Positions 1 to 29,472 of a DNA stretch of 32,000 nt are shown one piece after another. Origin of the DNA: Telmatocola sphagniphila. Lineage in GTDB: Bacteria > Planctomycetota > Planctomycetia > Gemmatales > Gemmataceae. The notes under the pieces are model-generated. The model worked only from the letters and a program-made list of their open reading frames with translations. It did not search any database and was not told the origin of the DNA. Position 1 is the first letter of the stretch. Each line of letters begins with the position of its first letter. The position numbers and the translations under genes are program-made. The stretch lies in assembly GCF_018398935.1 (NCBI RefSeq), contig NZ_CP074694.1, positions 1,890,001 through 1,922,000 of the forward strand, given 5' to 3'.

Positions 1-1
1 G

Positions 2-688
2 CTGGCCGACATCAAGCAGAAGGCCGACCGCGACACGATCGTTTCGCGCTTCCGCGGCCTGCAGCAGGACCTAGATGCCCTCGGCATCCGGCTTCGCCTG
101 CTGGAATGGCTCTACCGCAGCGAGTGGACCGTCCCGGTCGATCCCGAACTGAGCGAAGTCTCCGGGGAAGACGCCGTCCAGGAAACGGCCAAGCTCTTCG
201 CCGGGGTGTTCGCCTCGCGCCGCCTGAATCTCAATGTGGTCAATCAGGGGGGCTGGCTGAGCGTCGATAAGGACACGCTGACCGCGGCCCTGATGGGCCT
301 GCTCAATTTCGCCTGCAAGGCCAGTAGCGGCGATCGCCTGGAAGTCAAAATTGAAAAACTGCCGCCGACGCCGGAACTCACCGAAGGCTGGATGTGCTTC
401 ACCCTCTCGGGCGAATGGCAGCCGACCGTCTGGAACCAGACGGCCAGCATCGACTCCCTGAGCAATGAAGCGCTGATTGCGGACGCGACTTTGGGTCTGG
501 CCGTGGCCAACCGGGTCGCCCGGCGCTTGCAAGGGGTCTGTCGGGCCGAGGAAAGTTCCGATTTCCGCCGCTGCATCAAGCTCTACGTGCCGACCCGACT
601 GCCCAGTCCGATCACGACGGTTTCCGAAAACGAAGTGGGCCCCCGCGAAGAACTCTGTCTGGGCTGGAAGCTCGCCAGCGTTGTCTAA
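2..688 (+). CDS. Histidine-kinase-like ATPase (HATPase_c) protein, C-terminal part; the 5' end lies upstream of the window
   Basis: Frame 2 is open from the window edge (LADIKQKADRDTIVSRFRGLQQDL...) to TAA at 686-688. Track ORF 206..688 is only its GTG-initiated tail. N-box-like LMGLLNFACKASSGD and G2-like DATLGLAVANRVARRL are present. The G1 (DxGxG) position reads TLSGEW, so it is degenerate. Confidence 0.7.
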   Translation: MADIKQKADRDTIVSRFRGLQQDLDALGIRLRLLEWLYRSEWTVPVDPELSEVSGEDAVQETAKLFAGVFASRRLNLNVVNQGGWLSVDKDTLTAALMGLLNFACKASSGDRLEVKIEKLPPTPELTEGWMCFTLSGEWQPTVWNQTASIDSLSNEALIADATLGLAVANRVARRLQGVCRAEESSDFRRCIKLYVPTRLPSPITTVSENEVGPREELCLGWKLASVV

Positions 689-731
689 AGAGCCCCAACT
701 TACGAATGCCATCCCCCTGGAGAATCGATCC

Positions 732-1523
732 ATGAGTGCCGAGTTGAACGCCAGCCTCGATCAGCCGACCGAAGATGCCCTGCAGCTGGTTTGGAAAGAA
801 CAAGCCGATCTCAAAGCCGTCACGCTGTTGCGACGCTCGGGCATCACCGACGGAACGATCCATCGGACCATGTCGGTCGTCCACGGCACGCAGCCGTATA
901 AGCACAACCACTACCACGACGAGGAGTTCTTCCGCGCCGACCCCGCCAAGGGAACCTTGAGTAATCCCTACGGCCAGCGCATGATGCGGGTCTCCGAGGA
1001 TTTCGTGGTGGCCCTGCTGGGGGCTTTGGAAGACGAAGTCGGCCAGGGGGGCGCTCGCGAGATCATGTACAAGTGCGGCTTCCAGTGGGGCCTGCGCGAC
1101 ATGAAGCATTTTCTGCCGCGCATGCAGGCCGAGTTCGAAGCCGAACTGGACCGGCAGCGCATGGACTTCCTGGCGGAGACCTGGTGGTGGCCGTTGACCA
1201 TCACCGGCTGGGGCACCTGGCGCTACGACTTCCGGCAGCGCGATAAGGGCCTGCTCTTCATCGAGCTGTACGAATCGGCGGTCGCCCAGTCGGTCGGCGA
1301 TATCGGCTCGGTGATCTGCTACTTCTACGCCGGCCTGTTCGCTTCGACCTTCAGCGTCTTAAGCAAGCGGTCTCTCGGCTGCGTCGAGATGCAGTGCTAC
1401 GCCACCGGCGAAGACTACTGCAAGTTCGTAATTTCCGACTACAAGAAAGTCGATGCCGCGGCGTTCTGGCGGGGCGAAGGAGCCACCGCGAGCGACATCA
1501 TGAAACGCCTCCAAAACATGTAA
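732..1523 (+). CDS. V4R (4-vinyl-reductase-like) domain protein
   Basis: ATG at 732 is in frame with track ORF 477..1523, whose upstream extension overlaps the preceding CDS and is Arg/Pro-rich junk. It is preceded by GGAGAA. The C-terminal LGCVEMQCYATGEDYCKFVISDY resembles the V4R signature (E..C...G...C.F.I). The GxG-rich middle (YKCGFQWG, TITGWGTW) is typical of the family. Confidence 0.7.
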   Translation: MSAELNASLDQPTEDALQLVWKEQADLKAVTLLRRSGITDGTIHRTMSVVHGTQPYKHNHYHDEEFFRADPAKGTLSNPYGQRMMRVSEDFVVALLGALEDEVGQGGAREIMYKCGFQWGLRDMKHFLPRMQAEFEAELDRQRMDFLAETWWWPLTITGWGTWRYDFRQRDKGLLFIELYESAVAQSVGDIGSVICYFYAGLFASTFSVLSKRSLGCVEMQCYATGEDYCKFVISDYKKVDAAAFWRGEGATASDIMKRLQNM

Positions 1524-1537
1524 TTTCCGGAGAGACC

Positions 1538-2185
1538 ATGCTCGATACATCCCGTTCGCTGCGACTGAAGGGCAATTTTTTCGCTCGTCCGGACTGGTTC
1601 CGCACCGACGTGACCCGGGGCGTGACCCGCAATCCCCTCGGGGAACGGGTCTGCACGCTGACCAGCGACTTTCTGCTCGGCTTTCGCGATGCCATGATCT
1701 ACGAATGCGGCCCGGCCGCTTCGGCCGTTCTGAAATCGGCCGGCAAGCGCTGGGGCGGCCAGTTCGCCCACCGCCTCGATAAGGCGGTCAAGGAATTCTA
1801 CGGCACCCCCTGGCGGGAATTGCAGCGCGGCGTGCAGATCACCGTGCTGACCGAAGCCTTCGCCGCGCACGGCTGGGGCCGGTTGTCGGTCGATTGGGAA
1901 CGCTGGCCCGATTATCTGGGCGTGCGTCTGGAAAACTCGATCTATCCCGATCTGATCCTGCAGGCGGACAAGCCCTCGGACGCGCTGTTCGCCGGCTTTT
2001 TGAAATCGATTTTCGAATATCTGCTGGAAACGCAGCTGGAGTGCCTGCAGACCGATTGCCCCACCTGCGAAGCGACGGCGAGTGGTTTCGTTCTGGGTAC
2101 GCCGGCGGCGATCCAGGACGTGGAAGCGCGGTTTGCGAAAACGTTGGGACGGGAAGGGACGCTGCGCGAAGTGCTCGCGTCCTGA
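1538..2185 (+). CDS. Second, more divergent V4R-like protein
   Basis: ATG at 1538 lies 14 nt after the previous stop and is preceded by GGAGAGA; the track start 1394 overlaps the upstream gene. The layout parallels the first V4R protein (GERVCTLTSDFLLGF..., GWGRLSVDW..., C-terminal LECLQTDCPTCEATASGFVLG), but the terminal motif is degenerate. Confidence 0.6.
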   Translation: MLDTSRSLRLKGNFFARPDWFRTDVTRGVTRNPLGERVCTLTSDFLLGFRDAMIYECGPAASAVLKSAGKRWGGQFAHRLDKAVKEFYGTPWRELQRGVQITVLTEAFAAHGWGRLSVDWERWPDYLGVRLENSIYPDLILQADKPSDALFAGFLKSIFEYLLETQLECLQTDCPTCEATASGFVLGTPAAIQDVEARFAKTLGREGTLREVLAS

Positions 2186-2218
2186 AAGTGAATTGAGAAC
2201 TTAACCTAAGGAATTTCC

Positions 2219-2689
2219 ATGAATCCCTGGCTGATTACTCTCGTCAAGGACGCCAACGAGCGATTGCTGACCGAAAAGGAAGTGGAACGCTTTATTGCCT
2301 TTCTGGACACCCTGCCCGCTCGGATCAAGCTGAGCGAGGACCTGGAAAAGTTCGAGCCGGAAATCCTCGCGGCCCTGACCAAGGAACTGCCGGCGGCCTA
2401 TCCCGACCGACCCGGCTACAGCCGCCTGGTGATTCAGGACGTCGTCGAATCGCTGCGGCACCTGTTCGTTTCGGTCTTCGTGGACGAACCCGAATTCCTG
2501 AAACTGCGCTGGACCGATTCGCTCGTGAGTTCGCTGCGGCAGTCGGGACTGGACGAGGAGTGGGCCGCCGACATTTACAAGGCGATCGACGAGAAACTCA
2601 AAAAGTTGCTGCGCGGCCCGTCGCTGGAACTATACCGGCCGGCCATGGATCAATTGCTCGACAGTCTGGTCGTTTCCGTAGCCGTCTAA
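2219..2689 (+). CDS. Phycobiliprotein-like globin (phycobilisome-protein fold), cysteine-free, paralog A
   Basis: 156 aa, all-helical-looking sequence. The N-terminal DANERLLTEKEVERFIAF, then ...ILAALTKELPAAYPD..., then RLVIQDVVESLRHLF follow the order of phycobiliprotein landmarks (D.qGRyL..tEl; ..yP..; .RD..yyLR) as I remember them. AAGGA Shine-Dalgarno upstream. The protein has zero Cys. Confidence 0.6.
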   Translation: MNPWLITLVKDANERLLTEKEVERFIAFLDTLPARIKLSEDLEKFEPEILAALTKELPAAYPDRPGYSRLVIQDVVESLRHLFVSVFVDEPEFLKLRWTDSLVSSLRQSGLDEEWAADIYKAIDEKLKKLLRGPSLELYRPAMDQLLDSLVVSVAV

Positions 2690-2707
2690 CCCCTTGCGGA
2701 GAATCTC

Positions 2708-3229
2708 ATGCTTCTGTCCGTGATGACCAAACTCGATGGACGTTACCTCAAAAGCCGCGAACGCGCGGACTTAAAGGCCTACATCGGCACCATTCGCAAC
2801 CGCCGCACGGCCTACGATGAAATCCGCCGCAAGGCGCTGCCGGTCGCCGAAGGCGTCATCGCCGAGCAGCGCAAACGCTACCCCGATTTTGCCAAGATCC
2901 GGCCGCAGGGCTTCGAGAAGGGAACCCGGGACATCCACTCCCTGACCAACATCGCCGCCAACATGATGCTGCAGGAAGCGACCGAATTCTACGACAGCAT
3001 GTTCACCGAGTGGTACCGCACGATCCTCAAGGCGGTGCATATGTCGCCGCAATTTTTGCAGGACACCTTCAAGTCCTGGCAGGTCCAGCTCGAAGTGAAT
3101 CTGACCGCCGACACGCACGCCCTGCTGCGGCCGTACGTGCAGCATCTGACCGACTTTCTGTTGAACGTGCCGGTCCCCGTGAAAGATGAAACCGGCCGCC
3201 GCTTGGCCCAGATTCCCGCCTCCGTCTAA
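2708..3229 (+). CDS. Phycobiliprotein-like globin (phycobilisome-protein fold), cysteine-free, paralog B
   Basis: 173 aa. KLDGRYLKSRERADLKAY, VIAEQRKRYPDF, EKGTRDIHSLTNIAANMML and WYRTILKAVHMSPQF line up with phycocyanin/allophycocyanin landmarks (D.qGRyL, ..yP.., KCaRDigyYLR, y..al..lg.p). The canonical bilin-attachment Cys position is Gly (KGTRD). The protein has zero Cys. Confidence 0.7.
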   Translation: MLLSVMTKLDGRYLKSRERADLKAYIGTIRNRRTAYDEIRRKALPVAEGVIAEQRKRYPDFAKIRPQGFEKGTRDIHSLTNIAANMMLQEATEFYDSMFTEWYRTILKAVHMSPQFLQDTFKSWQVQLEVNLTADTHALLRPYVQHLTDFLLNVPVPVKDETGRRLAQIPASV

Positions 3230-3240
3230 GGAACTTTCCC

Positions 3241-3861
3241 ATGAGCTTACTGCACCGCGCCCGCACCGCGTCGGGCGATCTGCACCGCCGCATCGAAAAC
3301 ACGCCGCTGGCCCAGCAGCTGGCCCGCGGCACCGTCGAGCGCGACACCTACCTGCGCCTGCTCGAAGTCCTCCTGCCGATTCACACGGCGGTCGAAGCGC
3401 AACTCGCGCATCCCCCCTTGAACGTTTTGACCAATCCGAATCTGCCGCGGCGAAGCCTATTAATCGCCGACCGGGCCGCGCTGGCCGCGCCCGCCGAGCC
3501 TTTCGAATCGGAGCATCTGTCCGCCTGGCAGGAGGCCCTGCAGGAGGAGGAAGCGGTCTCCCCCTGGGTCTGGGCCGGCGCCCTCTACGTCCTCGAAGGC
3601 TCCCGGATGGGTTCGCGGATGCTGGCCAAAACCGTGGCGGCGGCGCTGCAACTCCCCCTGCAGCCCGGGCTCGGTCTAGACTACCACCTCGCGGGGTTAA
3701 GCGACGGCGGCCAAACCTGGCAGGAATTCAAAGCCTTTTTGGAAAACGCCCCAGTCACGGCGTCGGAGAGCGACAGCTTCGCCCGCGGCGTCGGACGGAC
3801 CTTTCAGGTGATGTTCGACGTCTACGAAGAGCTTTCGGGCGCCACCGCGGCACGATCTTGA
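3241..3861 (+). CDS. Heme oxygenase (biliverdin-producing, BphO/HO1 family)
   Basis: Proximal-His region TASGDLHRRIENTPL (compare T..sH...En). YLRLLEVLLPIHTAVEAQL matches the Y..lL...y..y..lE motif. ALYVLEGSRMGSRML matches the distal-helix YvlEGS.lGG motif. It starts 11 nt after the preceding stop. Confidence 0.8.
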   Translation: MSLLHRARTASGDLHRRIENTPLAQQLARGTVERDTYLRLLEVLLPIHTAVEAQLAHPPLNVLTNPNLPRRSLLIADRAALAAPAEPFESEHLSAWQEALQEEEAVSPWVWAGALYVLEGSRMGSRMLAKTVAAALQLPLQPGLGLDYHLAGLSDGGQTWQEFKAFLENAPVTASESDSFARGVGRTFQVMFDVYEELSGATAARS

Positions 3862-3887
3862 TTCCATGACGGGAAACGGAGAGCGGG

Positions 3888-5507
3888 ATGAAACGGCTGC
3901 ATTTGAAACCCCTCGGCGAAAACCTGCTGGTGGAAACCGGCGCGACTCTCCTGTCCACGCTGCTGAGCCGGCAGATGAACGTCAAAATGTCCTGCGGCGG
4001 CCGCGGCTTCTGTTCGACCTGCCGCGTCTCGATCAAACAGGGGATGGATCAGCTCTCCCCGATCGAGAATCGGGAACGCAAGACCCTCTCGCTGGTCGCC
4101 GGCGTCACCTCCGAATGCCGGCTGGCCTGCCAGTCGCGGGTCGAAGGCGAAGGGATCATCGTCGAAGTTCCCAAAGGGATGTACATCGAGCGGGCCGAGG
4201 ATCTCCTGAGCCTGCTCGGCCAGCGCGCTCCGGAAAATATCCTGCACCCGATCCATGGTTCGATTCTGATTCCCAAGGACAAGATCATCACCCGCAGCCT
4301 GCTCGAACAGTCGCGCACCCTCGAGAAGGAAGTGGAGCGGATGAAGAACCGGGCCGTCGGGGCGGGCGAATCGGACAGCCAGCTGAATTCCTCCTCGATC
4401 TCGAATTTCCGGTTTATGGCCACCGGCAGCGGCCTGGCGCCCAGCCAGGGGCTCGACTCCTTCACCTCGACGTCGATTCTGAATCTGACCACCCGGATGG
4501 ACTTTTCGAAGCACGCTTCGAAAACCGGGAATCCCTCGGCGCCGTCGTTCTCGATGCACTCGAGCGATCAGAAACTGCCGACGATCCATTCCGAAGAATC
4601 GACGCTGCCGCCCTACCTGACCCGCCCCGAACGCAAAGCCGTCGTCCTCGAGCCGGGCGCGACCGTGGGCAAGTTCCTGCTCCTCGAAGAGATCGGTAAA
4701 GGCGGCGTCGGCCTGGTCTATCGGGCCCTGCACACGAAATTGAAATCGATCGTGGCGATGAAGTTCCTGAAACCCAGTTCGCCCGGCGGCACCGGGGCGC
4801 TCCTGGAGCGCTTCGGCAACGAGGCCCGGCTCTTGGCCCAGCTCAATCACCCCAACGTGGTCCGCGTGCTGGACTTCGAAGACAACTCCGCCCTCCCCTA
4901 CGTGGTCATGGAATTCGTCGATGGCAGCAGCGCCTCGGAACTGCTCAAACAGCAGGGGCGGCTGCCGCTGGCCAAGGTCCTGAGCATCCTGTCGCAGGCG
5001 ACCCGCGGGCTGATGGCGGCCTTGCACCTGGGCATCATCCACCGCGACGTCAAGCCGGCCAACATCCTGGTCGACAAGCTGGGGATCGCCAAGCTGGTCG
5101 ATCTGGGCCTGGCCGTGCAGATGCAATCGGACGACGGCACGGAACTGGGCAAGGGCCGCGGCGCCGAAGGGACCGCCGGCTACATGTCGCCCGAGCAGCT
5201 GCAGGACGGTTCCTCGATCGACCACCGCTCGGACATCTACTCGCTGGGGGTCACCTTCTATCACCTCTTGACCGGTCGCCTGCCTTTCACCGGCAGCAAC
5301 CGCAACGAAGTCTTCTTCAAGCACATGACGGCGACGCCGACCGCCCCGCACGAGATTTGCCCGGATATGCCCGTGGAGGTCTCGCAGATCATTCTGAAGA
5401 TGATGGAGAAGCATCCCCTCGATCGGCCGCAAACCTACGAAGAGGTCCTGGCCTTGTGGGACACGGTGGCAGGAAATGCCAAGGAACTGGTGCGCAGCGC
5501 GAAGTGA
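3888..5507 (+). CDS. [2Fe-2S] ferredoxin domain fused to a Hanks-type Ser/Thr protein kinase
   Basis: N-terminus: C36-x5-C42-x2-C45 (SCGGRGFCSTCRV) plus C77/C81 (SECRLAC), a ferredoxin-like 2Fe-2S ligand pattern. A Ser-rich linker follows (~aa 150-250). C-terminal kinase motifs: GKGGVGLVYRA, VAMKFL, HRDVKPANILV, DLGLA, GTAGYMSPEQ. GGAGAG lies upstream of the ATG. Confidence 0.9.
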   Translation: MKRLHLKPLGENLLVETGATLLSTLLSRQMNVKMSCGGRGFCSTCRVSIKQGMDQLSPIENRERKTLSLVAGVTSECRLACQSRVEGEGIIVEVPKGMYIERAEDLLSLLGQRAPENILHPIHGSILIPKDKIITRSLLEQSRTLEKEVERMKNRAVGAGESDSQLNSSSISNFRFMATGSGLAPSQGLDSFTSTSILNLTTRMDFSKHASKTGNPSAPSFSMHSSDQKLPTIHSEESTLPPYLTRPERKAVVLEPGATVGKFLLLEEIGKGGVGLVYRALHTKLKSIVAMKFLKPSSPGGTGALLERFGNEARLLAQLNHPNVVRVLDFEDNSALPYVVMEFVDGSSASELLKQQGRLPLAKVLSILSQATRGLMAALHLGIIHRDVKPANILVDKLGIAKLVDLGLAVQMQSDDGTELGKGRGAEGTAGYMSPEQLQDGSSIDHRSDIYSLGVTFYHLLTGRLPFTGSNRNEVFFKHMTATPTAPHEICPDMPVEVSQIILKMMEKHPLDRPQTYEEVLALWDTVAGNAKELVRSAK

Positions 5508-5708
5508 GCGGTGGGCCGGGCGAGAATCGAAAGAAACCACGGGGGAAACGAGGCGTCGTCGCGAAACGAGGGGCACCGGCGGGAGAACAGCCGGTCGACG
5601 AGCTGAAGAGGTGAGATAGAAGAACGGAGTTAGGTCATTTCAAGCGATTTCTATAGCCCTTTCCTTACTGGGGAAGCCGTTCGAGTCGCCTTAAAGACAA
5701 AACCTGAT

Positions 5709-6884
5709 TCAAGATGTGGGACCGACGGCGCGGCCGGAGACGGAGAGGCGTTTTCCGATCAGCGCCCGTCGAATGCGCGGGGTATGGCGTTCGCAGAGAT
5801 ACCAGAAGGCCGCGCCGATCCCCAGCAACAGGCTCAAAAATCCCAGGTACTGCAGAACCGCCGGGAGATCGGGAAAACACTTCTGCGGCAGATAGAAGTG
5901 CGTGGCGATCAGAAGCACGACCGGGAAGTGAATGGTGTAAAGCGAGTAGGACAGGTCGGCGGCGGCGATGGCGATTTTCTCAAGTGCCGGTCCCAGAATC
6001 GGTATGCGCGGCCGCGGCCATTTGGCCAGGACCAGACAAAGTGTGGCGAAGGCCAGCCCGACGACCAGATCGCTCGAGACGCCCAGTCCTTCCTGCAGCC
6101 GCAGCGATTTGCTGTAGCCCAGGGACGCTCCAAAAAGCCCCAGCGTGACGAGGAGCGCAATCCAGCGGCGACGCGTCGAGAAGCGCGGCTGGATCCGGTA
6201 AACCAGAACGCCCAGTAACCAGATCAGATAGCCCAGCCAGATGCCCCGCGGCAACCCATAGGCTAACGCCGCGATCGCGCCCCCCGCGAGCAGGCGCCGC
6301 CCGAGGCCCGCCGGTTTCCCGGAAATTCCGAGCAGCAATGTGCCGAGCGGAAAGAGCACGTAGTACCAGAACTCGTTGGCCAGACTCCAGAGCGGGCTAT
6401 TGGTTCCGAAGGTCGGCACCCCGATCGTCTGGACGAAGCCGAGATTCCCCAGGAAGGTGACCAGACTCGTCGAGTAGGACCCGTCGGTTCGGGGTCCGGA
6501 GGTCCAGAGCGGGGCGTATTCACCCTGGGCCACCTCGGGATGCGCCGAGAGCGTGTACGAATCGATCAGGTAGGTCAGGACCAGCGCCGGGAGAAGCACC
6601 CCCCAGAGCCGGGTCAGCCGCGTGGTGCCATAGGCCGCCCAGGAGAAGCGGTCCCCCGCTTTGAGCACCGAGCCGCCGACGAACATGCCGCTGAGGACGA
6701 AGAAGACCATCACCGCTTCGTGGCCGAGCCCGGTGAGGCCGTAGAGCAATTTTTGGAAGAGCGTCGGGGCGGTCAATTCGGCGTAGTCGACCAGCGCCAC
6801 CGCCCGCAGGTGCCCGGCGCAGACCAGAATGGCACTGAGCCCCCGGACCAGATCCAGCCAGATATAGCGCTCGTCCTGTTTCAT
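5709..6884 (-). CDS. Membrane acyltransferase, family 3 (O-acyltransferase of polysaccharide)
   Basis: Multi-TM protein with the N-terminal MKQDERYIWLDLVRGLSAILVCAGHL signature of Acyl_transf_3. ATG at 6884 is preferred. The track start 6989 adds an Arg-rich 35 aa extension and remains possible. Confidence 0.75.
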   Translation of the reverse strand: MKQDERYIWLDLVRGLSAILVCAGHLRAVALVDYAELTAPTLFQKLLYGLTGLGHEAVMVFFVLSGMFVGGSVLKAGDRFSWAAYGTTRLTRLWGVLLPALVLTYLIDSYTLSAHPEVAQGEYAPLWTSGPRTDGSYSTSLVTFLGNLGFVQTIGVPTFGTNSPLWSLANEFWYYVLFPLGTLLLGISGKPAGLGRRLLAGGAIAALAYGLPRGIWLGYLIWLLGVLVYRIQPRFSTRRRWIALLVTLGLFGASLGYSKSLRLQEGLGVSSDLVVGLAFATLCLVLAKWPRPRIPILGPALEKIAIAAADLSYSLYTIHFPVVLLIATHFYLPQKCFPDLPAVLQYLGFLSLLLGIGAAFWYLCERHTPRIRRALIGKRLSVSGRAVGPTS

Positions 6885-7028
6885 GCTTGGGAAAAAGAGG
6901 CGAGCGAAAGAGGAACCCGCGAGGGACCCCGCGGCCCTTCGCCCGAAACGGCGAAAAAGCCGCCCAGCGAGAAGACGGGAACGCGGCATCCCGTCAGTGG
7001 GAGAAAGAGTTAGGAAAAAAATCGTCGA

Positions 7029-8003
7029 CTACTTGGCTTCGGCCTTCAGATCGGCTTCGACCATCATGCGGACCAGTCCCGGGAAGTCGACCTTTCGTTC
7101 CCAGCCCAGTTTTTTGCGGGCCAGGCTCGGATCGCCGATCAACAGATCGACCTCGGCGGGGCGCAGATACTTCGGGTCGACTTCGACGTACTTCTGCCAA
7201 TCCAGATTCACGTGATCGAATGCCAGCTCGACGAATTCCTGAACGCTGTGGGTCTCCCCCGTCGCGATCACAAAATCGGTCGGCACGTCCTGCTGCAGCA
7301 TCAGCCACATCGCCTGCACGTAATCGCCGGCAAAGCCCCAGTCTCGCTTGGCCTGCAGATTGCCCAGGGAGAGTTTTTGCTGCTTGCCGAGCTTGATGCG
7401 GGCGACCGCATTGGAAATTTTGCGGGTGACGAATTCGAGGCCGCGACGGGGGCTTTCGTGGTTAAACAGAATCCCGGAAACCGCGAACATGTTGAACGAT
7501 TCGCGATAATTGACGGTGATCCAGTGCCCGAAGACCTTGGAGGCCCCGTACGGACTGCGCGGATAAAAGGGCGTCTCCTCGCGCTGCGGAATCTCCTGTA
7601 CTTTGCCGAACATTTCGCTCGACGAGGCCTGGTAGAAGCGGGGCGACTGCCGCGAGTAGCGGATCGCTTCGAGGATGCGGTTGACCCCGACGGCGGTCAT
7701 TTCTGCGGTGGCGAGCGGCATATCCCAGCTGGCGGTGACGAAGGACTGCGCGGCCAGGTTATAGACTTCCGAGGGCTGAATCGATTCGATGAGGTTGGCC
7801 ATCGACGATTGATCGAGCAGATCGGACGGGTGCACGGTGAGGCGATCGAGAATATGTTCGATGCGGCTGAGATTGGGCGTACTGGAGCGGCGGATCATGC
7901 CATGGACCTGATAGCCCTTCTCCAGCAGAAATTCGGCCAGGTAGGAACCGTCCTGGCCGGTGAGGCCCGTGATCAAAGCGATTTTCTTCTGCGATACTGC
8001 CAT
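7029..8003 (-). CDS. gmd: GDP-mannose 4,6-dehydratase
   Basis: [36 protein letters not shown]..., [15 protein letters not shown] and [12 protein letters not shown] are diagnostic GMD motifs. ATG at 8003 is preferred over the TTG at 8015 given by the track. Confidence 0.9.
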
Positions 8004-8214
8004 GGGATCTCTCAATCTCCGGAAATCGTACCAGGTCTTCCAAACGGCGCTTCGAGGGACTTTTCAGAACTTCGCGGGGCGGTTTGCCGAGTCTCCTTCG
8101 GATTTTACAAAACCCCGCGGAGAAGTCTTCCGACGCGGCAGAGATTTCGGGGGAAGGGCCAACCGAAAGGAAGTGCGAGGGGAGTTTCGCAAAGCGAAGC
8201 CCGGGGAAGATGCC

Positions 8215-8775
8215 TTAAGCGCTCGGCCAGCCGTCGCGTTTTTTCAGCGGGCGGGCCGGATTGCCGACGCAGACCATCCCGGCGGGAAGAGAGGAGAAGA
8301 CCGAGGCGCGGGCGCCGACGACGCAGCCGCGACCGATCGTCACGTTGGGACCCACGAAGGTATCGGCGGCCAGCCAGACATCGTCCTCGACGGTGATCGG
8401 CGGCCGCAGAAGCGGCATATGGGGTTGCGTAAAATCGTGGCTGCCGGCACACAGATGAGCCAGCTGACTGATCGTCACCCGTGCGCCGATTGTGATCGGC
8501 CCCAGGCAGTACAGAATCGCCCGATCGCCGACCGAGGAATTGGCTCCGAGGGTTAAATTCCAGGGGATTTCGATTGTGACGGTCGGTCGAATCCGAGCTG
8601 TGCGATCAATCTGGGCCCCAAAGAGTCGCAACAGAGTGTTCCGCCAGCGATAGCACCCGCGCGGGCTGCACCCAAACAGCGTCGATTGCACGAGGCCCCA
8701 GAGGGCGCGGGCGATCTTTTCCCGGAAGGTCCAGGGGCTGATATGGCGACGGTCGGCCGGATCGGGGGGGGACAT
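8215..8775 (-). CDS. Hexapeptide-repeat O-acetyltransferase (WcaF/colanic-acid-acetyltransferase-like)
   Basis: C-terminal left-handed beta-helix repeats: ITVEDDVWLAADTFVGPNVTIGRGCVVGARASVFSSLPAGMVCVGNPARPL. The N-terminal region is like WcaF. Its ATG abuts the stop of the upstream GT2 gene (8775/8776). Confidence 0.8.
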   Translation of the reverse strand: MSPPDPADRRHISPWTFREKIARALWGLVQSTLFGCSPRGCYRWRNTLLRLFGAQIDRTARIRPTVTIEIPWNLTLGANSSVGDRAILYCLGPITIGARVTISQLAHLCAGSHDFTQPHMPLLRPPITVEDDVWLAADTFVGPNVTIGRGCVVGARASVFSSLPAGMVCVGNPARPLKKRDGWPSA

Positions 8776-9717
8776 CTATTTCGCAGTCTTTTCTTGCAGC
8801 CGCAATTCGTGGAATTTAGCCAGCGAGATAAAATCGTACCAGGCCATCAGCCGGCACATCACGAAGCCGGCGTAGCCGTCCCGGAAGCCGCCTTTGAGGA
8901 GATAGCCGTAGAGAAATCGCAAGAGCGGCCGAAAGGGCATTTTTCGGGTTTTGGCTTTCAGCCAGCGCTTGCGGGCGATCGGCCCGCCGAAGAGCGAAGG
9001 CTTCACGCCCCCCTCGTCTTTGGCGAGCATCGCGTGCGCTTCCCAGGTCGAGTAGCGATTGTGTTTTTCGACCCAGACGCTCAGATTGGGATAGGCGTAG
9101 TGCAGAAAATCGTGCTTCAGATAACCCGCCTCCCCGGTTTTGAGCACGATGTGCTCGTGGACTTCATTGTCGCCGGAGCCGGTCTGGCCGAGATTACCGA
9201 TCCGCTCGTACCGCCCGAGGGCATGCTTGAACAGTCGCACGTTATAGGAGGGGTAATAGCCGCAGTGCTTGATCCACTGTCCGAGGAACATGAAACGGCG
9301 GTTGAGCCAGTAGCCATCGCCGCAGCCGTTGCCGGGGGGATATTTTCCGGTGACTACCTGTTCGATTTCCTGCGCCAGTTCCGGCGTCATGTACTCATCG
9401 GCATCGAGGATCAGCACCCATTCGTTGCGCCAGGAGACCTGTTCTAAGGCCCAATTTTTTTTCTTGGGCCAGCCTTCGGCGGAATAGTGAAACTGGTAGA
9501 CCTCGGCGCCGAGGGCTTCCGAGAGAGCCACCGTCTGATCGGTCGACTGGGAATCGACCACGACGATCTGGTTGGCCCACTGGAGCCGGCGTAGACACTC
9601 CTCGATGTTCGACTGTTCATTTTTGACCGGAATCAACACGCTGACCGGAACGTTCTTAGGCGGCCAGGGGATCGTCGAATTCGCTTCAGGACTAGACATC
9701 GATCCAAACCATTTCAA
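8776..9717 (-). CDS. Glycosyltransferase family 2
   Basis: VSVLIPVKNEQSNIEECLRRL...VVVDSQSTDQT...ILDADE is the classic GT-A/GT2 N-terminal domain. Track start 9717 is TTG; an ATG at 9699 (MSSPE...) is an equally plausible start. Confidence 0.8.
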   Translation of the reverse strand: MKWFGSMSSPEANSTIPWPPKNVPVSVLIPVKNEQSNIEECLRRLQWANQIVVVDSQSTDQTVALSEALGAEVYQFHYSAEGWPKKKNWALEQVSWRNEWVLILDADEYMTPELAQEIEQVVTGKYPPGNGCGDGYWLNRRFMFLGQWIKHCGYYPSYNVRLFKHALGRYERIGNLGQTGSGDNEVHEHIVLKTGEAGYLKHDFLHYAYPNLSVWVEKHNRYSTWEAHAMLAKDEGGVKPSLFGGPIARKRWLKAKTRKMPFRPLLRFLYGYLLKGGFRDGYAGFVMCRLMAWYDFISLAKFHELRLQEKTAK

Positions 9718-9782
9718 CTATTGGGGGCGGTAACACTGGGAGAAAGAGGCCTCGAACCGGAGAACGTTGGGGGTGCGGCCCC

Positions 9783-10904
9783 TCAGCGGCGGGCCTGCGC
9801 GACGACCGAGCCATACAAGTCTTCGAATTGACCGATGACCCGGTCCCAGGAATAGCGCGAGGTGACTAGCTCCCGTCCGGCCGGTCCCATGGTCTGGCGG
9901 GCCTGGGGGTTCGAAAGAATTTTATCGAGGGCCCCGGCGATCTGATCCGCATCGAGATCGGTGACATACCCGGCTCGAGAGGATTCCACTTCGGGGAAAT
10001 GGCACGCTTTGGTGATCACGACCGGAATTTGGGCGGCAAGGGCTTCCAGAATCGCCACGCTGAAACCTTCCTGGCGGCTGGGGAGAACAAACACCGCCGC
10101 GCCCAAGAGGGCCGTCTGCTTCTGTTCGCCATACAGGGGACCGGTGAGAACGACCCGCTCCGTGAGGTTCCGAGACGCGATCAGTTTTTCGAAATCCGCC
10201 CGCGCGCCGTCGTCCGGACCCGCGACCACCAGCTTCAGAGACGGATGCGCGGAGGCGATCTTCGCAAAAGCTTCGACTAGATAATCGAGGCCTTTTTTGA
10301 AGTGCAGCCGACTTAAAAAGAGCAAGAACGGGGCCACGTCGCCCAGGGCGTAGCGCTGCCGGAAATTCGCAAGGGCCAAATCGCTCGGAGCCGCGGCAAC
10401 CTCGATCCCGTTGGGGATAATGGCCGCTGGAGCCGTAATTCGGAGAGTTTTCGTCAGATCGGCCTCGTCCGAGTTGAGAAAATGGATGGCCCCGGCCTGA
10501 TCCAGAAAACGCTTGACCACCAGTTGCAGAAACAGCTTCTTTTTCAGGCGCTTCTGCGACAAACTCCAGGGATCGAGCATGCCGTGCGGTGAGAGAACAT
10601 AGGGTTTCTGGAGTTGGCGGGCCGCCCGAATCACCTGGAGTAACGGACGATCCCAGACCCCGTGCAGATGCACCAGATCGAAAGACTGAATCCGCGTGCT
10701 CTGGAAACCCGGGTTCCAGAAAAAGTCCCACCAGCGGCTGGGGGAAAGCTTCTGTGCTGTTTCCAGGTCCGTAGTGGGCACGATCTCGGCGGCCATCGCC
10801 GCCTGCAGTCCCCGCCGCTGTTGTTGGGCCACCAGCGACCGAACCGCGGAAGCCGTTCCGCCCGTGGACGGATCCAGAGAATGCACGACGTGCAGGACTT
10901 TCAT
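9783..10904 (-). CDS. Glycosyltransferase family 4 (GT-B, Glycos_transf_1)
   Basis: MKVLHVVHSLDPSTGGTASAV... N-terminus and C-terminal ...FVLPSRQEGFSVAILEALAAQIPVVIT (E-x7-E-type motif). The ATG is preceded by GGGGAGG. Confidence 0.8.
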   Translation of the reverse strand: MKVLHVVHSLDPSTGGTASAVRSLVAQQQRRGLQAAMAAEIVPTTDLETAQKLSPSRWWDFFWNPGFQSTRIQSFDLVHLHGVWDRPLLQVIRAARQLQKPYVLSPHGMLDPWSLSQKRLKKKLFLQLVVKRFLDQAGAIHFLNSDEADLTKTLRITAPAAIIPNGIEVAAAPSDLALANFRQRYALGDVAPFLLFLSRLHFKKGLDYLVEAFAKIASAHPSLKLVVAGPDDGARADFEKLIASRNLTERVVLTGPLYGEQKQTALLGAAVFVLPSRQEGFSVAILEALAAQIPVVITKACHFPEVESSRAGYVTDLDADQIAGALDKILSNPQARQTMGPAGRELVTSRYSWDRVIGQFEDLYGSVVAQARR

Positions 10905-10940
10905 CGCCGCCTCCCCTGGCTCTGGCCGGGACAGGGTGGC

Positions 10941-12302
10941 TTACGCCGAGGCATGCGGATTCCGGGGAGCATTCAGCTGCGGATTCACAAACTCGAAAAA
11001 CAGAACGCCGAGATAGGCGAACAAAAAGGGAAAGAGCACCAGACTGGTGATGTCGCGGCCCATATTGAAGGTCAGCCCCAGCCCGATCAAAAACAGGGCC
11101 AGCCGGTGCTGCAGATAGCGCTGACTCCAGAGCTTGGCGAGGATCTGCACCCAAATTCCCATCAGGAGCGCCGCGGCGGCCGGCCCGAGGATATCCCCAA
11201 AATTGCAGACCCCCTGTCCGATCATGCCGCGCGAGATGGTCGCAAACACGCCGTGGTCTACACCGGACCCGCCGAAGCCGCGCATGATCGCGTAGTTGAT
11301 CCCGATCATTGGCTTATCTTTCCAGATACCCCGAGGCACGAACGCGGCCAGCTCGGCCAGATAGGACTCCCCCCATTCCTCGGTCATGACCCGGGTCGTC
11401 AGGAACGATCGGATATAGCAGAGTTCCTCGAACATATTGACGTCGGTGCGGTTCTCCGGTCCCGCCTGCACCTGCGGCTCGCTATTGAGAGCCTTGACGA
11501 TCGAGGCGGAACCCTTTTCGCGATTGCTTTGAATGAACGCAAACCAGCCGGAAATCACAATCAGCAGCGTGGTCAGAATGACCGCTTTTTTCGCGAAGGC
11601 GTCCCGGGAGATAAAGATGTAAGAGAAGACGCCCGGGAGGATCACCGCCAAAATCCCGCTGCGAGCTCTCTGAAAGAGATAGGCCTCGATTGCAATCAGA
11701 AATAAGATCAAAGACAGGTAACGCAAATTGCTGGAATAGAAGGTGACGAACTGAATCCCCAGCATGCCGACGGCGGCCACGTGACAGTAGCCGCAGATGG
11801 AGATCAGAAAGTCGAATTTGGTACCGACCGCGCCGCGCGACCAGATGAATTGCGGATCGCTCGAAAGCGGTGGAAAGAAAATCGAGAAGAAATCCCCGTC
11901 GAGCATCCATAAGCCGATCAGCGTCAGGAACGCCCAGACCGCGAAGACGCTTGTGAAGACTTTTTTCTCAAAGTCGAGGCGCTGCTGTTCATCGACGAAA
12001 AAAAGGTTCGCCTCCGGATTCCTCTCGTACTCCGGCAGGAAAGCCAGATAGCCCCGAAAGACCAGGAGGAAGGTCAGCACTTGCAGCAGGGAGCCCTCGA
12101 CGAGGTCGAAGCCGAACTTGAGATTGTAGTACAGGATCCCGTTTTGCGTGATCTCGTAGAAATACCAAAAGCCGATGGTAAAGTAGACGATCAGCGCCGG
12201 CCGGCTCCAGGTCCGGTCCAATTTTCGGACGGCCTCCACGACCAGCAGCACCAGAACAAAGAGGTTCAGCAGAAAGAAGGCATTGAACTCGAACATAGTC
12301 AC
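10941..12302 (-). CDS. Polytopic membrane protein, probable oligosaccharide repeat-unit polymerase (Wzy-like)
   Basis: About 10 or more hydrophobic segments with a large loop (NSEPQVQAGPENRTDVNMFEEL...VPRGIWKDKP). It sits among GT genes in a locus that also has a Wzx-like flippase. Wzy families are too divergent to assign from motifs, so the call is by context. GTG at 12302 or ATG at 12296. Confidence 0.55.
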   Translation of the reverse strand: MTMFEFNAFFLLNLFVLVLLVVEAVRKLDRTWSRPALIVYFTIGFWYFYEITQNGILYYNLKFGFDLVEGSLLQVLTFLLVFRGYLAFLPEYERNPEANLFFVDEQQRLDFEKKVFTSVFAVWAFLTLIGLWMLDGDFFSIFFPPLSSDPQFIWSRGAVGTKFDFLISICGYCHVAAVGMLGIQFVTFYSSNLRYLSLILFLIAIEAYLFQRARSGILAVILPGVFSYIFISRDAFAKKAVILTTLLIVISGWFAFIQSNREKGSASIVKALNSEPQVQAGPENRTDVNMFEELCYIRSFLTTRVMTEEWGESYLAELAAFVPRGIWKDKPMIGINYAIMRGFGGSGVDHGVFATISRGMIGQGVCNFGDILGPAAAALLMGIWVQILAKLWSQRYLQHRLALFLIGLGLTFNMGRDITSLVLFPFLFAYLGVLFFEFVNPQLNAPRNPHASA

Positions 12303-12317
12303 CTGAGGTCGGTCGGG

Positions 12318-13427
12318 TTAACGCACCCAGCGAAGGTACTGATCGATCATCCGGGCCGGCGTGAACTGTTCCACATAATCGAAGGCCGTAGGGACGGTGT
12401 GCGCGGACGACTCGCGATTCTGAATTTTATCGAGAATCGCTTCCGCTAGAAGCTCCGGCCGCTGGGGAGGCACCAATTGGCCCAAGCGACCGCCCTGCAG
12501 CAGTTCCCGGCAGGCCGGCACATCGGTGGCCACCACTGGCAGTTTTGCCGCCATCGCTTCCAAAAGAACGCTGCCCAAGCCTTCGTTGATCGTTGTAGAG
12601 AATACGAACAGATCGGCTAAGCCCAGCAATTCGGGCACATCCGAACGCGTGCCCAGAAAGGTGACCTGTTCGCGAATTCCCAGCCGATCGGCGAGTTGCT
12701 CCAAGTCGCCGCGCAGACTCCCCTCCCCGACCAGCCCCAATCGGAAATTCGGGCAGCGCGAAACAATCGAGGGTATCGCTTTGAGGAGCGTCTCGTGGTC
12801 TTTGTGTTTCTCCAGCGTCGCGACCATGATCGCGGTGAAGAACTTCCCGTCTTTTACGATCTCTTGCCGCGCCCGGGTCGCCCGGGCGGAAATTTCCCGG
12901 GCCCGGGCACAGTTGTAGACGGTCTGGAACAGGCCCCGGGAGACGCCTCGAATCGAACGATTGGCGTCGCGAACATAATCCGAGCAGCAGATCACTTTGG
13001 CGCGAAGCAGCGCCAGGGGCCAATAGACCGAGCAGGAAATCAGATCATTTTTGCCGCCGAGGCGCGGCGGATTCCCGGAATGCACCAGGAGTTTTTTGCA
13101 GCCCGCCAGACGGGCTCCTTCGCAGACCCAGCTCGCCATCCCGGTGACCCAGCAAAGCACGATATTGGGCCGGGTGTCGCGCACCATCCGATAGGAAGCC
13201 TGGACGATGCGCGGGAATTGCGAAAAGCCCGGCTGGAGCAGATCGTGCTCCCGGTAGGCTCGAGAACCCTTTTGTAACGGCTCTTTCAAGTCGCCCGGCT
13301 GCGAGTTTAAAACCAGAACCCCCTGCCAGAGATCGGGACGCGCCGCCAACCAGTCGAGCACCAGACGCGGCGTGCCTTCGGCGCGAGGGGTCGCCAGGAC
13401 ATGCAGAATACGAGGTTCAAAAGCCAA
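12318..13427 (-). CDS. Glycosyltransferase family 4
   Basis: ILHVLATPRAEGTP... N-terminus. C-terminal LGLVGEGSLRGDLEQLADRLG...FVFSTTINEGLGSVLLEAMAAKLPVVATDV. The start codon at 13427 is TTG and there is no upstream ATG in frame. Confidence 0.8.
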   Translation of the reverse strand: MAFEPRILHVLATPRAEGTPRLVLDWLAARPDLWQGVLVLNSQPGDLKEPLQKGSRAYREHDLLQPGFSQFPRIVQASYRMVRDTRPNIVLCWVTGMASWVCEGARLAGCKKLLVHSGNPPRLGGKNDLISCSVYWPLALLRAKVICCSDYVRDANRSIRGVSRGLFQTVYNCARAREISARATRARQEIVKDGKFFTAIMVATLEKHKDHETLLKAIPSIVSRCPNFRLGLVGEGSLRGDLEQLADRLGIREQVTFLGTRSDVPELLGLADLFVFSTTINEGLGSVLLEAMAAKLPVVATDVPACRELLQGGRLGQLVPPQRPELLAEAILDKIQNRESSAHTVPTAFDYVEQFTPARMIDQYLRWVR

Positions 13428-13445
13428 GAAGAAACTTTCCTGGAA

Positions 13446-14579
13446 CTAACGCGTCCAGAGTTCTTTGAACTCGCGGACGCAGCGGGCCCAGCGGACCGAC
13501 TCGGACCGGTGCTGAGCCGCCGTTTGCTTGGAGTGCTGCTTCGCTTCCGACTGCAGATAAGCTTCGAAACGATCGGCGATCTGAAGAGGCCCCTCGGTGA
13601 GGGCGAAGCGGAATCCGGCCTCTTCCGGGAGGGTATCGGCGGGGCCTTCGATGGCGTAACCGGCCACCGGAATTCCGACGCGCAGAAATTCGAGGGTGGA
13701 AATTCCCAAGGCTTCCCGAGCCGAAAACAGACAGCCGACGTCGCAGGATTCAAGAAATCGCAGAAACAAATCGGCTTGGGTCCGCTTATCGATAAAGCCG
13801 ACAAAGCGGACGCCGTCGCGCTGGGTTAATTCCGCGGGAGCCTCGCCGGCCGCCTGCACCTGGACCTTCCAGCCGCGGGCGGCCAATCGATCGCGTACTT
13901 CGATGACGATCGGCAGCCCTTTGCGCTTCCAATCTTTGCCGACAAATCCGAGAACAAACGGCCGATCGACCCCCGCCCGGCCCGACGGAGCTTTGGGAAC
14001 CCAGTTTTCGGGGAGATCGAGGTTCGCTCCGGGCAGCACCGTGTGCACTTTCGTGGGATCAACGCCACATTCCCGGACGAGCGATTCCGCCGTCCAAGTC
14101 CCCATGGCGATCACACGCTCCGCCAGGCGATAATTCTCTTGCTCGAGCTGGAGAACCTGTTCCCGAATATCCTTGGGAAGATTCATCTCCAAGCCCCTCC
14201 CGGAAGTCAGAGCGGCCAGAGTCGCATCGATGTAGTAACTGATTTTTCCGCCGGCCCGTTGGACCGTGCGCGCCCGGGGAAAGGTCTGATTGAAACTGAT
14301 AATCTCCTGCGCAAGGATCGCCGGCGGAATTTGCTGCTCCACGGCGTCGAGGAATTTTTCCGAGTACTGATAGCCGCCGCGGGGATGACCGCGCAACTTA
14401 CGGAAGAAATTCCATACCAGCCGCGAGCGCTGAAAGATTTCGAGATCGATTTGGCCGGGAATATTGGCGAAATTCTGTTTCTGGCACTCCGAATAAAAAT
14501 GATACGGGATACCGCTCCAGCAGTTGGGATCGGCCGTATTCCCCAGGGCAAAGATCGCTCTCCCGGTCTTCGAATTCAT
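13446..14579 (-). CDS. Glycosyltransferase (GT-B fold, family 4-like)
   Basis: C-terminal half FVLGFVGKDWKRKGLPIVIEV...FVGFIDKR...CLFSAREALGISTLEFLRVGIPVAG is GT1/GT4-like. The N-terminal half is divergent. Its ATG overlaps the upstream stop as ATGA (14576-14579). Confidence 0.7.
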   Translation of the reverse strand: MNSKTGRAIFALGNTADPNCWSGIPYHFYSECQKQNFANIPGQIDLEIFQRSRLVWNFFRKLRGHPRGGYQYSEKFLDAVEQQIPPAILAQEIISFNQTFPRARTVQRAGGKISYYIDATLAALTSGRGLEMNLPKDIREQVLQLEQENYRLAERVIAMGTWTAESLVRECGVDPTKVHTVLPGANLDLPENWVPKAPSGRAGVDRPFVLGFVGKDWKRKGLPIVIEVRDRLAARGWKVQVQAAGEAPAELTQRDGVRFVGFIDKRTQADLFLRFLESCDVGCLFSAREALGISTLEFLRVGIPVAGYAIEGPADTLPEEAGFRFALTEGPLQIADRFEAYLQSEAKQHSKQTAAQHRSESVRWARCVREFKELWTR

Positions 14580-16911: not shown

Positions 16912-16914
16912 GCT

Positions 16915-17943: not shown

Positions 17944-17974
17944 CGAGTTCGAGGCTGGGGAGGAAGGGACCAGT

Positions 17975-19162: not shown

Positions 19163-19236
19163 GGATCGAAGAATCGAGCTCTTAGGACACGGAGAAAGTA
19201 CTAGGCGAACGCGCGGGAAATCGAGATATTGACCTG

Positions 19237-20775: not shown

Positions 20776-20884
20776 AGAGCGGGGCCGCTTCTGAAAAAAA
20801 CCGGGAGGAGGAGGGAGCGAATCGGGAACGAAGGCCGAAAGCGACGTTGAAAAACGTCAGCGGCGAGGAGAGGAAAGGGAAAAC

Positions 20885-20904
20885 GGGGGCTCAGGCAAGC
20901 CCCC
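20885..20904 (-). terminator. GC-rich hairpin with U-rich tail between the epimerase and flippase genes (candidate intrinsic terminator/attenuator)
   Basis: The + strand reads GGGGGCT-CAGGCA-AGCCCCC (perfect 7 bp stem, 6 nt loop). On the - strand the hairpin is followed by GTTTTCCCTTTCC. It starts 27 nt after the stop at 20932. Confidence 0.35.
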
Positions 20905-20931
20905 GTGTGCGAGCGGGAGGACCTGTAGAGA

Positions 20932-29327: not shown

Positions 29328-29361
29328 TTTTAAAAAAAATGCACTTTAAGAAATCGGACTA

Positions 29362-29376
29362 CTCCTCTTCACCTTG
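29362..29376 (+). repeat. IS630-family left terminal inverted repeat
   Basis: CTCCTCTTCACCTTG. Similarity to the right end continues more weakly for about 12 more nt. Confidence 0.65.
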
Positions 29377-29472
29377 ATATAGTCGTTGCAAAATCTGCAC
29401 ATTCTCTAGTAGAAATTGCAATTTTGGGATAGTTTTCAATCCATTTGATTGCAGTGTTGTTGCGGCCATATC

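Follow-up and report, generated by a model that had tools for sequence, protein, structure and literature searches.

A V4R protein pair in a planctomycete BBAG gene cluster: a candidate heterodimeric binding module

The bilin-related gene cluster at the left end of a 32,000-nucleotide stretch of the Telmatocola sphagniphila genome (contig NZ_CP074694.1, positions 1,890,001 to 1,922,000 of the forward strand; this whole stretch is referred to as the window) contains two genes coding for V4R-type proteins, here named V4R-A and V4R-B. These labels are operational and do not place the proteins in the published clades A and B. We conclude with high confidence that the two genes encode the V4R pair of BBAG (bilin biosynthesis-associated globin) clusters, one being its A and the other its B member; BBAGs are phycobiliprotein-like globins. 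The locus is a planctomycete member of this published cluster type, and the cluster type itself is not new. Its make-up is locally unusual, having no ferredoxin-dependent bilin reductase (FDBR), adjacent A and B genes, two globins devoid of Cys, and a ferredoxin fused to a kinase. What is new here is an invariant site confined to V4R-A, single-chain A-then-B fusions, the strong conservation of V4R-A, a minimal module, and an FDBR-less architecture with FDBR-bearing sisters. On balance, we lean towards an explanation in which the A/B pair forms an asymmetric heterodimer and acts as a non-enzymatic binding or adaptor module together with BBAGs, ferredoxin and kinase signalling.

Clusters of this type were described as pre-PcyA clusters (pre-1/pre-3), comprising heme oxygenase (HO), an adrenodoxin/putidaredoxin-like Fe-S protein, two V4R clades and 1-2 BBAGs (Rockwell, Martin, Lagarias 2023, PNAS 120:e2300770120, PMC10151467). 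Planctomycetes were listed among the pre-1 hosts, the tested BBAGs were found to bind bilin without lyases, and the functions of the cluster proteins were stated as not known (PMC10151467). One 2026 paper uses the BBAG cluster as context only, and another describes knowledge of the Slr0144 and Slr0147 V4R domains as scant. The cluster has been linked to the origin of phycocyanobilin synthesis and of phycobiliproteins and, in cyanobacteria, to photosystem II assembly and repair, and of its parts the V4R pair is the one least understood. The planctomycete copies give testable leads, namely a putative asymmetric dimer, the A-then-B fusions, a minimal core, and a ferredoxin-kinase fusion that may mirror the SpkG-Fd5 relation.

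Comparison with the clusters of Rockwell et al. revealed the same HO, 2Fe-2S protein, two V4R proteins and two globins in the window. The window differs in that it has no FDBR, the V4R-A and V4R-B genes are directly adjacent and are followed by the two BBAG genes, the Fe-S protein is present only as a Ser/Thr kinase fusion, and the BBAGs are without Cys. A profile built from 31 cluster FDBRs gave no match at E<=10 in the six-frame translation of the 32-kb window. The absence of FDBR does not exclude membership of the BBAG clusters, since the published cyanobacterial clusters are also without it: the slr0144-slr0149 cluster, which is derived from pre-PcyA clusters, lacks both HO and FDBR in the cluster (PMC10151467). 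The slr0144-slr0152 genes of Synechocystis sp. PCC 6803 code for the V4R proteins Slr0144 and Slr0147, the globin Slr0149, the ferredoxins Fed5 and Fed4, and the kinase SpkG. They share with the window two V4R paralogs, phycobiliprotein-like globins, an adrenodoxin-like 2Fe-2S ferredoxin and a Ser/Thr kinase at the operon end. However, the Synechocystis system is photosystem-associated and without HO, and its ferredoxin and kinase are encoded by separate genes, whereas they are fused in the window. Physical interaction of Slr0144-Slr0149 has been shown by co-fractionation and affinity purification-mass spectrometry (PMC9880817).

Fold of V4R-A and V4R-B

In the Pfam V4R (PF02830) search, V4R-A scored 56.6 bits (E 2.8e-15, cut-off 31) and covered profile positions 2-60 of 62; it also matched XylR_N below threshold (20.7 bits, cut-off 23). 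V4R-B reached 18.7 bits in the V4R search and remained below the gathering cut-off of 31. Thus, the assignment of both proteins to V4R by a previous sequence-only reading of this DNA held by Pfam score for V4R-A and not for V4R-B, while its claim that the second protein has the same architecture as the first was borne out by profile comparison. The V4R-A family (77-sequence alignment) and the V4R-B family (41-sequence alignment) were matched by hhalign with 99.8% probability (E 3e-28) over 210 columns, and a precomputed PF02830 match was present in 31 of the 41 listed V4R-B homologs. Searches against PDB sequences, both single-sequence and profile, gave only marginal matches (E 0.1-0.8), so that a fold comparison was required. 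The AF2 model of V4R-B (pLDDT 89.2, pTM 0.86) matched the PoxR, MopR and DmpR sensor domains in Foldseek (PoxR E 1.8e-9, TM 0.65-0.70, ~196-204 aligned columns) and the archaeal V4R protein MJ1460 (E 9e-6). For V4R-A (pTM 0.76), the sensor domains of PoxR, DmpR and MopR were again the top matches (PoxR E 3e-7), and MJ1460 was found with E 2e-4. Predicted structures of both proteins therefore matched V4R-type sensor domains. From the profile comparison, the Pfam matches in homologs and the AF2/Foldseek result, V4R-B is a full-length V4R-fold paralog despite failing the Pfam cut-off. As both models retrieve the same sensor-domain structures, each protein is, by its predicted structure, a stand-alone copy of the whole effector-binding module (XylR_N arm and V4R core) of sigma-54 activators.

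The best structural matches of both proteins, over ~190-200 residues, were the A domains of PoxR/DmpR/MopR/XylR (PDB 5fru, 6iy8, 5kbe), at an identity of 12-18%. Unlike the sigma-54 activators, the window proteins consist of the sensor module only (263 and 215 amino acids), without an AAA+ or DNA-binding domain. The PoxR and DmpR sensor domains are interlocked dimers (PMC7264223). In contrast to the PoxR/DmpR homodimer, the window has two different subunits, and phenol is unlikely as their ligand. Single-chain fusions of an A-type module followed by a B-type module were found in P0252, P0283, P0284 and P0289, in which the N-terminal module favours the A profile, while the C-terminal one fits the B profile far better and is devoid of the Cys site. 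These fusions, together with the interlocked dimers of PoxR and DmpR, support the formation of an A/B heterodimer by V4R-A and V4R-B, which we consider probable. Two further single chains with tandem V4R modules, P0240 and P0297, carry the Cys/Glu site in both modules, as against the first module only in the A-then-B fusions. In two more distant relatives of the V4R-A family, P0364 and P0379, the V4R module is joined to a domain like photoactive yellow protein, which carries the VAPCT chromophore-Cys motif and matches TIGR02373 over its full length (88 and 86 bits, lower than the equivalog cut-off); by their domain matches, these predicted fusions show a precedent for V4R attached to a chromophore-bearing sensor. 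P0275, which joins a V4R-A fragment to a downstream Phycobilisome domain, has the appearance of a chimeric or frameshifted gene prediction and was not used as evidence.

Foldseek also retrieved Bet3/TRAPPC3 subunits with both models (E 1e-4 to 1e-5), which favours the alternative of a ligand-free scaffold, i.e., a Bet3/TRAPPC3-type heterodimer that only assembles a BBAG-ferredoxin complex. Bet3/TRAPPC3 and MJ1460 (PDB 2oso) have the same core fold, and the Bet3 family works as paralog heterodimers. A passage in PMC2253512 proposes V4R as the ancestor of heterodimer-forming TRAPP subunits, and the physical complex of Synechocystis could be read in the same way. However, Bet3/TRAPPC3 and MJ1460 belong to eukaryotic/archaeal trafficking, have no XylR_N-like arm and gave weaker structural matches, the best ones being effector-binding sensor domains and not TRAPP. 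Moreover, V4R-A has two invariant His/Trp-rich motifs, QPYKHNHY (residues 54-61) and ETWWWPL (residues 149-155), whose loops resemble a binding site; the ETWWWPL loop falls on the phenol-positioning His of PoxR, albeit in an alignment that is weak. We regard a ligand-free scaffold as very unlikely and retain the reading of a heterodimer with a binding or adaptor function.

The predicted Cys3Glu site

The sequence-only reading had pointed to a Cys motif in each protein, GCVEMQCYATGEDYCKFVI in V4R-A (residues 216-234, nt 1377-1433) and LECLQTDCPTCEATASG in V4R-B (residues 167-183, nt 2036-2086), and considered the latter to be rearranged. Both motifs were located as described, in the two tandem open reading frames that it had named. 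In V4R-A, however, the first Cys of the motif (C217) varies among homologs, and the set that is invariant in the 77-sequence alignment is C196, E219, C222 and C230. These residues align with Cys, Glu, Cys and Cys of PoxR and DmpR, with a common spacing of C...E-x2-C-x7-C; the DmpR comparison uses the spacing pattern only, the SEQRES index of the Glu and its published number differing by two residues. In DmpR, one Glu and three Cys are the zinc ligands and lie next to the effector pocket (PMC7264223). V4R-A thus keeps a predicted metal site, the Cys3Glu site of the DmpR zinc type.

The V4R-B motif does differ from that of V4R-A, but the positions of the V4R-A ligands are occupied by D148, Q171, C174 and S182. 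As three of the four ligands have been lost, and with them the zinc ligands of PoxR/DmpR, the 'rearranged' motif is a degenerate site and not an alternative one. C177 of V4R-B was found in the window protein alone among its homologs, while C57 and C174 are invariant in 41 homologs and C39 is also kept. A Cys in the first long helix is common to both paralogs (MYKC115G in V4R-A, YEC57G in V4R-B), and Met stands at this position in PoxR/DmpR. We considered this MYKCG/YECG Cys as a counterpart of the palmitoylated Cys68 of Bet3, but the motif aligned with Met47 of Bet3 and the idea was dropped.

The V4R cysteines of MsvR, an archaeal redox-sensing regulator, are redox sensors, and its V4R region has the conserved Cys set. 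MsvR (NF053755) was the best NCBIfam match of V4R-A (34.5 bits, C-terminal V4R part only), and V4R-B scored 11.4 bits. The Cys3Glu site could accordingly be imagined as a redox-reactive metal-thiolate (or Fe-S) centre as in MsvR, by which a redox/thiol-switch sensor would report oxygen or redox state to the ferredoxin-kinase, with bilin being secondary. The invariant ligand set, the context of ferredoxin, O2-consuming HO and kinases, and the extra conserved cysteines (C115 in V4R-A; C39, C57 and C174 in V4R-B) would fit such a sensor. Yet both MsvR scores are far below the cut-off of 220, neither protein has a helix-turn-helix domain, and the same site in solved homologs is a structural zinc next to the effector pocket (PMC7264223). 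A redox switch at this site is, in our view, quite unlikely, and a metal-stabilised binding module remains the preferred reading of V4R-A.

Cluster relatives, bilin and kinase coupling

A scan of one genome per species yielded 80 loci from Planctomycetota, Myxococcota, Sericytochromatia, Methylococcaceae and others, which were annotated with profiles that started from the window proteins and were then iterated; the remaining open reading frames were clustered. The full-context set comprised the 47 loci flanked by 6 kb or more on either side. In this set, V4R-A co-occurred with V4R-B in 46 loci, BBAG in 44, HO in 38, Fer2 in 32, Ser/Thr kinase (STK) in 32 and FDBR in 24; FDBR assignment was checked by Pfam (Fe_bilin_red, 77.7 bits). 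Scores told the A family apart from the B family in 83 loci, and each cluster had one member of either family. V4R-A orthologs showed 73% identity in Frigoriglobus tundricola, 67% in Tuwongella immobilis and 62% in Isosphaera pallida, from which a Gemmataceae planctomycete was deduced as the source of the window. V4R-A was the most conserved cluster protein, with a median identity to the window protein of 67% in 17 window-like loci, as compared to 43% for V4R-B, 38% for BBAG-a, 36% for BBAG-b, 36% for HO, 49% for the ferredoxin and 53% for the kinase. Such conservation is expected of a subunit that has to fit several partners. When 1.84 billion representatives were searched exhaustively by profile, 636 sequences were returned at E<=1e-3 and 46 at E<=1e-30, indicating a small family, to which the single-chain A-then-B fusions belong. 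A third homolog search, with a profile that included V4R-A from Sericytochromatia and Myxococcota, found no cyanobacterial sequence among the best 120 of 853 matches.

The window-like architecture, present in Gemmataceae, runs PAS-kinase-like, (Fer2), V4R-A, V4R-B, BBAG-a, BBAG-b, (HO), Fer2::STK. The A-globin-B architecture runs (FDBR), HO, (Fer2), V4R-A, uncharacterised protein, BBAG, V4R-B, (STK), and its hosts are Gemmataceae, Isosphaeraceae, Pirellulaceae and other phyla. FDBR was found within 10 kb in 1 of the 14 window-like loci; of the 32 A-globin-B loci, 23 have FDBR. Both architectures occurred together in several metagenome-assembled genomes. A minimal V4R-A/BBAG/V4R-B module without nearby HO, FDBR or ferredoxin was observed in Tuwongella immobilis (L088 8001-9965), with a divergent FHA-domain gene upstream. 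STK adjoins the cluster also in Myxococcota, Sericytochromatia and Methylococcaceae.

These data bear on the speculative proposal of the sequence-only reading that the V4R proteins could alter the bilin chemically and possibly stand in for the missing reductase or lyase. The window does harbour HO and a ferredoxin domain with no FDBR in 32 kb, as searched by six-frame hidden Markov model (HMM) comparison, and FDBR is rare near window-like loci. However, the pair is not an alternative to FDBR, because in about half of the full-context loci, and in most A-globin-B loci, it occurs beside a genuine one; it is also present in Tuwongella without any HO. A Pfam scan (E<=1) of the V4R proteins gave no match to FDBR (PF05996) or to a lyase family, only V4R, XylR_N and chance-level matches, nor did the Pfam and NCBIfam scans reveal a family that binds flavin, NAD(P) or Fe-S. 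The Cys/Glu site of V4R-A matches the zinc site of DmpR/PoxR and not a known redox-cofactor site, and a thioether lyase has no target in the window globins, which are both without Cys. The supporting argument from the vinyl groups of biliverdin had relied on BchJ and thereby on a misnomer, as BchJ is not the 8-vinyl reductase (PMC4432870). The BchJ equivalog (TIGR02019) has a cut-off of 74.3, to be compared with 11.6 bits for V4R-A and no match for V4R-B. We consider the substitution of a reductase or lyase by the V4R proteins scarcely credible; most likely, the pair neither reduces nor ligates bilin. The other part of the same proposal, that the V4R proteins bind, chaperone or sense bilin, is plausible.

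The CXRD motif, the role of which has been described (PMC10151467), is replaced by VIQD in BBAG-a and by GTRD in BBAG-b. The BBAG-a and BBAG-b families are homologous (hhalign 99.8%), and G/A-x-R-D instead of CXRD is present in nearly all planctomycete BBAGs, including those adjoining FDBR. As the window BBAGs have no Cys, a bilin, if present, would be held by them non-covalently, and covalent bilin attachment seems to be the exception in planctomycetes.

The close association of the pair with BBAG (44 of 47 loci) would suit a pure tetrapyrrole carrier or chaperone, handing heme or biliverdin between HO, (FDBR) and BBAGs with no signalling role. For BchJ itself, a role as porphyrin carrier, scaffold or chaperone that enhances pathway enzymes has been suggested (PMC4432870), and BchJ, after which V4R is named, is tied to tetrapyrrole metabolism, although it belongs to the bacteriochlorophyll pathway and is a single gene, not an A/B pair. 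In E. coli, the chromophorylation of BBAG-1 was poor when its V4R partners were not expressed with it (PMC10151467), and a pair that is only a carrier would explain this poor loading. On the other hand, the minimal module and the cyanobacterial clusters are without nearby HO or FDBR, kinases, the PAS-kinase-like gene and the FHA gene are recurrent neighbours, and neither V4R protein is a BchJ equivalog. A carrier with no part in signalling is hence rather improbable, and we return to the pair as a binding or adaptor module of a signalling complex.

In Synechocystis, SpkG, encoded by the last gene of the operon, is needed for the phosphorylation of the cluster ferredoxin Fd5 (PMC11863333). Fd5 is adrenodoxin-like, and some cyanobacteria add a Ser/Thr kinase to this cluster, which is termed cluster e' (PMC4284462). 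The fusion gene of the window (3888-5507) codes for a ferredoxin domain at residues ~1-100 (Cys36, 42, 45, 81), a Ser/Thr-rich linker and a kinase domain at ~260-530 (HRD 385, DLG 405). Its ferredoxin domain shares 50-59% identity with the stand-alone ferredoxins of the cluster and is thus of the cluster's own ferredoxin family. The Fer2::STK fusion was present in 14 Gemmataceae loci, the window included, and no description of it was found in the literature consulted on this cluster. In most syntenic loci, a small stand-alone ferredoxin gene separates V4R-A from the PAS-kinase-like gene (L004 9497-9967); it is absent at window 688-732. L017 is, like the window, without the stand-alone gene, and only the kinase-fused ferredoxin is left. 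By analogy, the Fer2::STK protein would be the gene-fusion counterpart of the SpkG-Fd5 relation. An anti-phage defence reading was rejected, as PADLOC gave no match for the V4R and BBAG proteins and matched the fusion only as a generic kinase.

On this basis, the following mechanism may be proposed. V4R-A and V4R-B would pair as an asymmetric heterodimer on the plan of the interlocked dimer of PoxR/DmpR, with V4R-A as the metal-stabilised, highly constrained subunit and V4R-B as its degenerate partner. Docking partners of the dimer would be the two BBAGs without Cys and the 2Fe-2S ferredoxin, as in the complex of the Slr0144-Slr0149 homologs. The dimer may bind or sense a hydrophobic tetrapyrrole, the likeliest being biliverdin from the adjoining HO, held non-covalently by the BBAGs. 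Phosphorylation by the Ser/Thr kinase fused to the ferredoxin, and by the PAS-kinase-like protein encoded upstream, could then be coupled to the state of the complex. The adaptor or sensor role of the pair in a kinase-linked complex is a tentative assignment, somewhat short of probable. Several points weigh against this mechanism. The DmpR cavity is 24-36 cubic angstroms, for phenol (PMC7264223), and a bilin would need a much larger or different site. Tuwongella is without HO at both loci, so the ligand need not be bilin, and Pirellulaceae clusters have the V4R pair without ferredoxin or kinase nearby, so the kinase coupling is not universal. The link of the window V4R proteins to the Synechocystis proteins rests on the published phylogeny. 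Further, the V4R-A model is moderately confident (pLDDT 76.6), with the two most conserved loops, QPYKHNHY and ETWWWPL, as its least confident parts, although low confidence is expected for loops that become ordered on binding.

A more far-reaching version, in which the pair is a transducer between a globin-bound bilin and a eukaryote-like kinase, and so part of a biliverdin-based sensor type (for light, heme, oxygen or redox) in non-photosynthetic planctomycetes, appears rather doubtful. If true, it would define a new type of bilin sensor with no relation to phytochromes or cyanobacteriochromes, and by extension would account for the Slr0144-Slr0149/SpkG/Fd5 module of cyanobacteria.

Other recurrent genes were noted in the related clusters. 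A conserved protein without Pfam match is encoded between V4R-A and BBAG in 31 A-globin-B clusters (e.g. L029 10800-11339; L054 10851-11939), with a length of ~110-180 amino acids in Gemmataceae-type loci and ~260-500 amino acids in Pirellulaceae-type loci. Its family (C2) was checked as a degenerate globin and rejected at an hhalign probability of 0.1%. In L054 (13302-15704) and 15 other Pirellulaceae loci, V4R-B is followed by a ~800-amino acid protein with an N-terminal Phycobilisome domain (49 bits, GHQD) and ~650 residues without assignment; these clusters have FDBR and HO. A gene pair for ParA/MinD-like P-loop ATPases recurs downstream of the kinase following V4R-B (16 loci; L039 13565-15284). 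Seven loci from metagenome-assembled genomes titled 'uncultured Alcaligenaceae bacterium' (L008, L012, L017, L037, L038, L062 and L069) have 57-75% identity to the V4R-A of the window and Gemmataceae-type synteny, and the taxonomic labels of these bins look wrong.

Gene layout and remainder of the window

Seven genes on the + strand, separated by intergenic gaps of 11-43 nt, occupy the left end of the window (Table 1). The sequence-only reading had placed the V4R genes in a bilin-related operon, and this view was upheld by the genes downstream of V4R-B, namely those of the two Phycobilisome-family globins, HO and the Fer2 and Pkinase fusion, which are on the same strand with gaps of 11-33 nt. 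V4R-A and V4R-B both start with ATG, with GGAG located 13 nt and 10 nt upstream, respectively, and an independent JGI gene call on the identical contig gave the same products of 263 and 215 amino acids. Upstream of V4R-A, the window holds only 731 bp, and a promoter and terminator scan of window positions 1-6000 revealed nothing exceeding the shuffled expectation. The product of the first gene, which is cut by the window start, has its C-terminal 225 residues aligned to the end of a ~570-660 amino acid protein that precedes the cluster in window-like loci (family C0, E down to 2.5e-22). Its HATPase_c match in the Pfam scan was weak (12.7 bits), and the Tuwongella ortholog has PAS and HATPase_c.

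Table 1. Features of the BBAG-type cluster at the left end of the window (aa, amino acids)
Feature	Position	Strand	Basis or remark
3' part of PAS/histidine-kinase-like gene	2..688	+	cut by window start; syntenic first gene of cluster type
V4R-A, stand-alone XylR_N+V4R-type module, 263 aa	732..1523	+	Pfam V4R 56.6 bits
V4R-A predicted metal-site codons C196 (1317), E219 (1386), C222 (1395), C230 (1419)	1317..1421	+	alignment to PoxR/DmpR
V4R-B, divergent V4R-A paralog, 215 aa, without N-terminal extension	1538..2185	+	hhalign, AF2, Foldseek
BBAG-a, phycobiliprotein-like globin, no Cys	2219..2689	+	Pfam Phycobilisome 21.7 bits, cut-off 22.2
BBAG-b, phycobiliprotein-like globin, no Cys	2708..3229	+	Pfam Phycobilisome 22.5 bits, cut-off 22.2
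Heme oxygenase	3241..3861	+	Pfam Heme_oxygenase 65.4 bits, profile positions 2-203 of 204
Adrenodoxin-type 2Fe-2S ferredoxin::Ser/Thr kinase fusion	3888..5507	+	Fer2 32.6 bits, Pkinase 167.9 bits, fdx_isc 55.5 bits

The remainder of the window contains a long polysaccharide-synthesis cluster on the - strand (5709-21927), with genes for an acyltransferase, a GDP-mannose 4,6-dehydratase, about eight glycosyltransferases, a Polysacc_synt flippase and an epimerase. It is followed on the + strand (23463-29327) by an operon of a metallo-beta-lactamase-fold protein, an ATP-dependent DNA ligase, an Lhr-type helicase and a metallophosphoesterase, which we take to resemble the Lhr-MPE-ligase repair clusters of other bacteria. 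Over positions 29000-32000, the GC content drops from ~0.60 to 0.42-0.51, and this stretch, judged by its composition, may be foreign DNA; a second Acyl_transf_3 gene is located there at 30631-31767 on the - strand.

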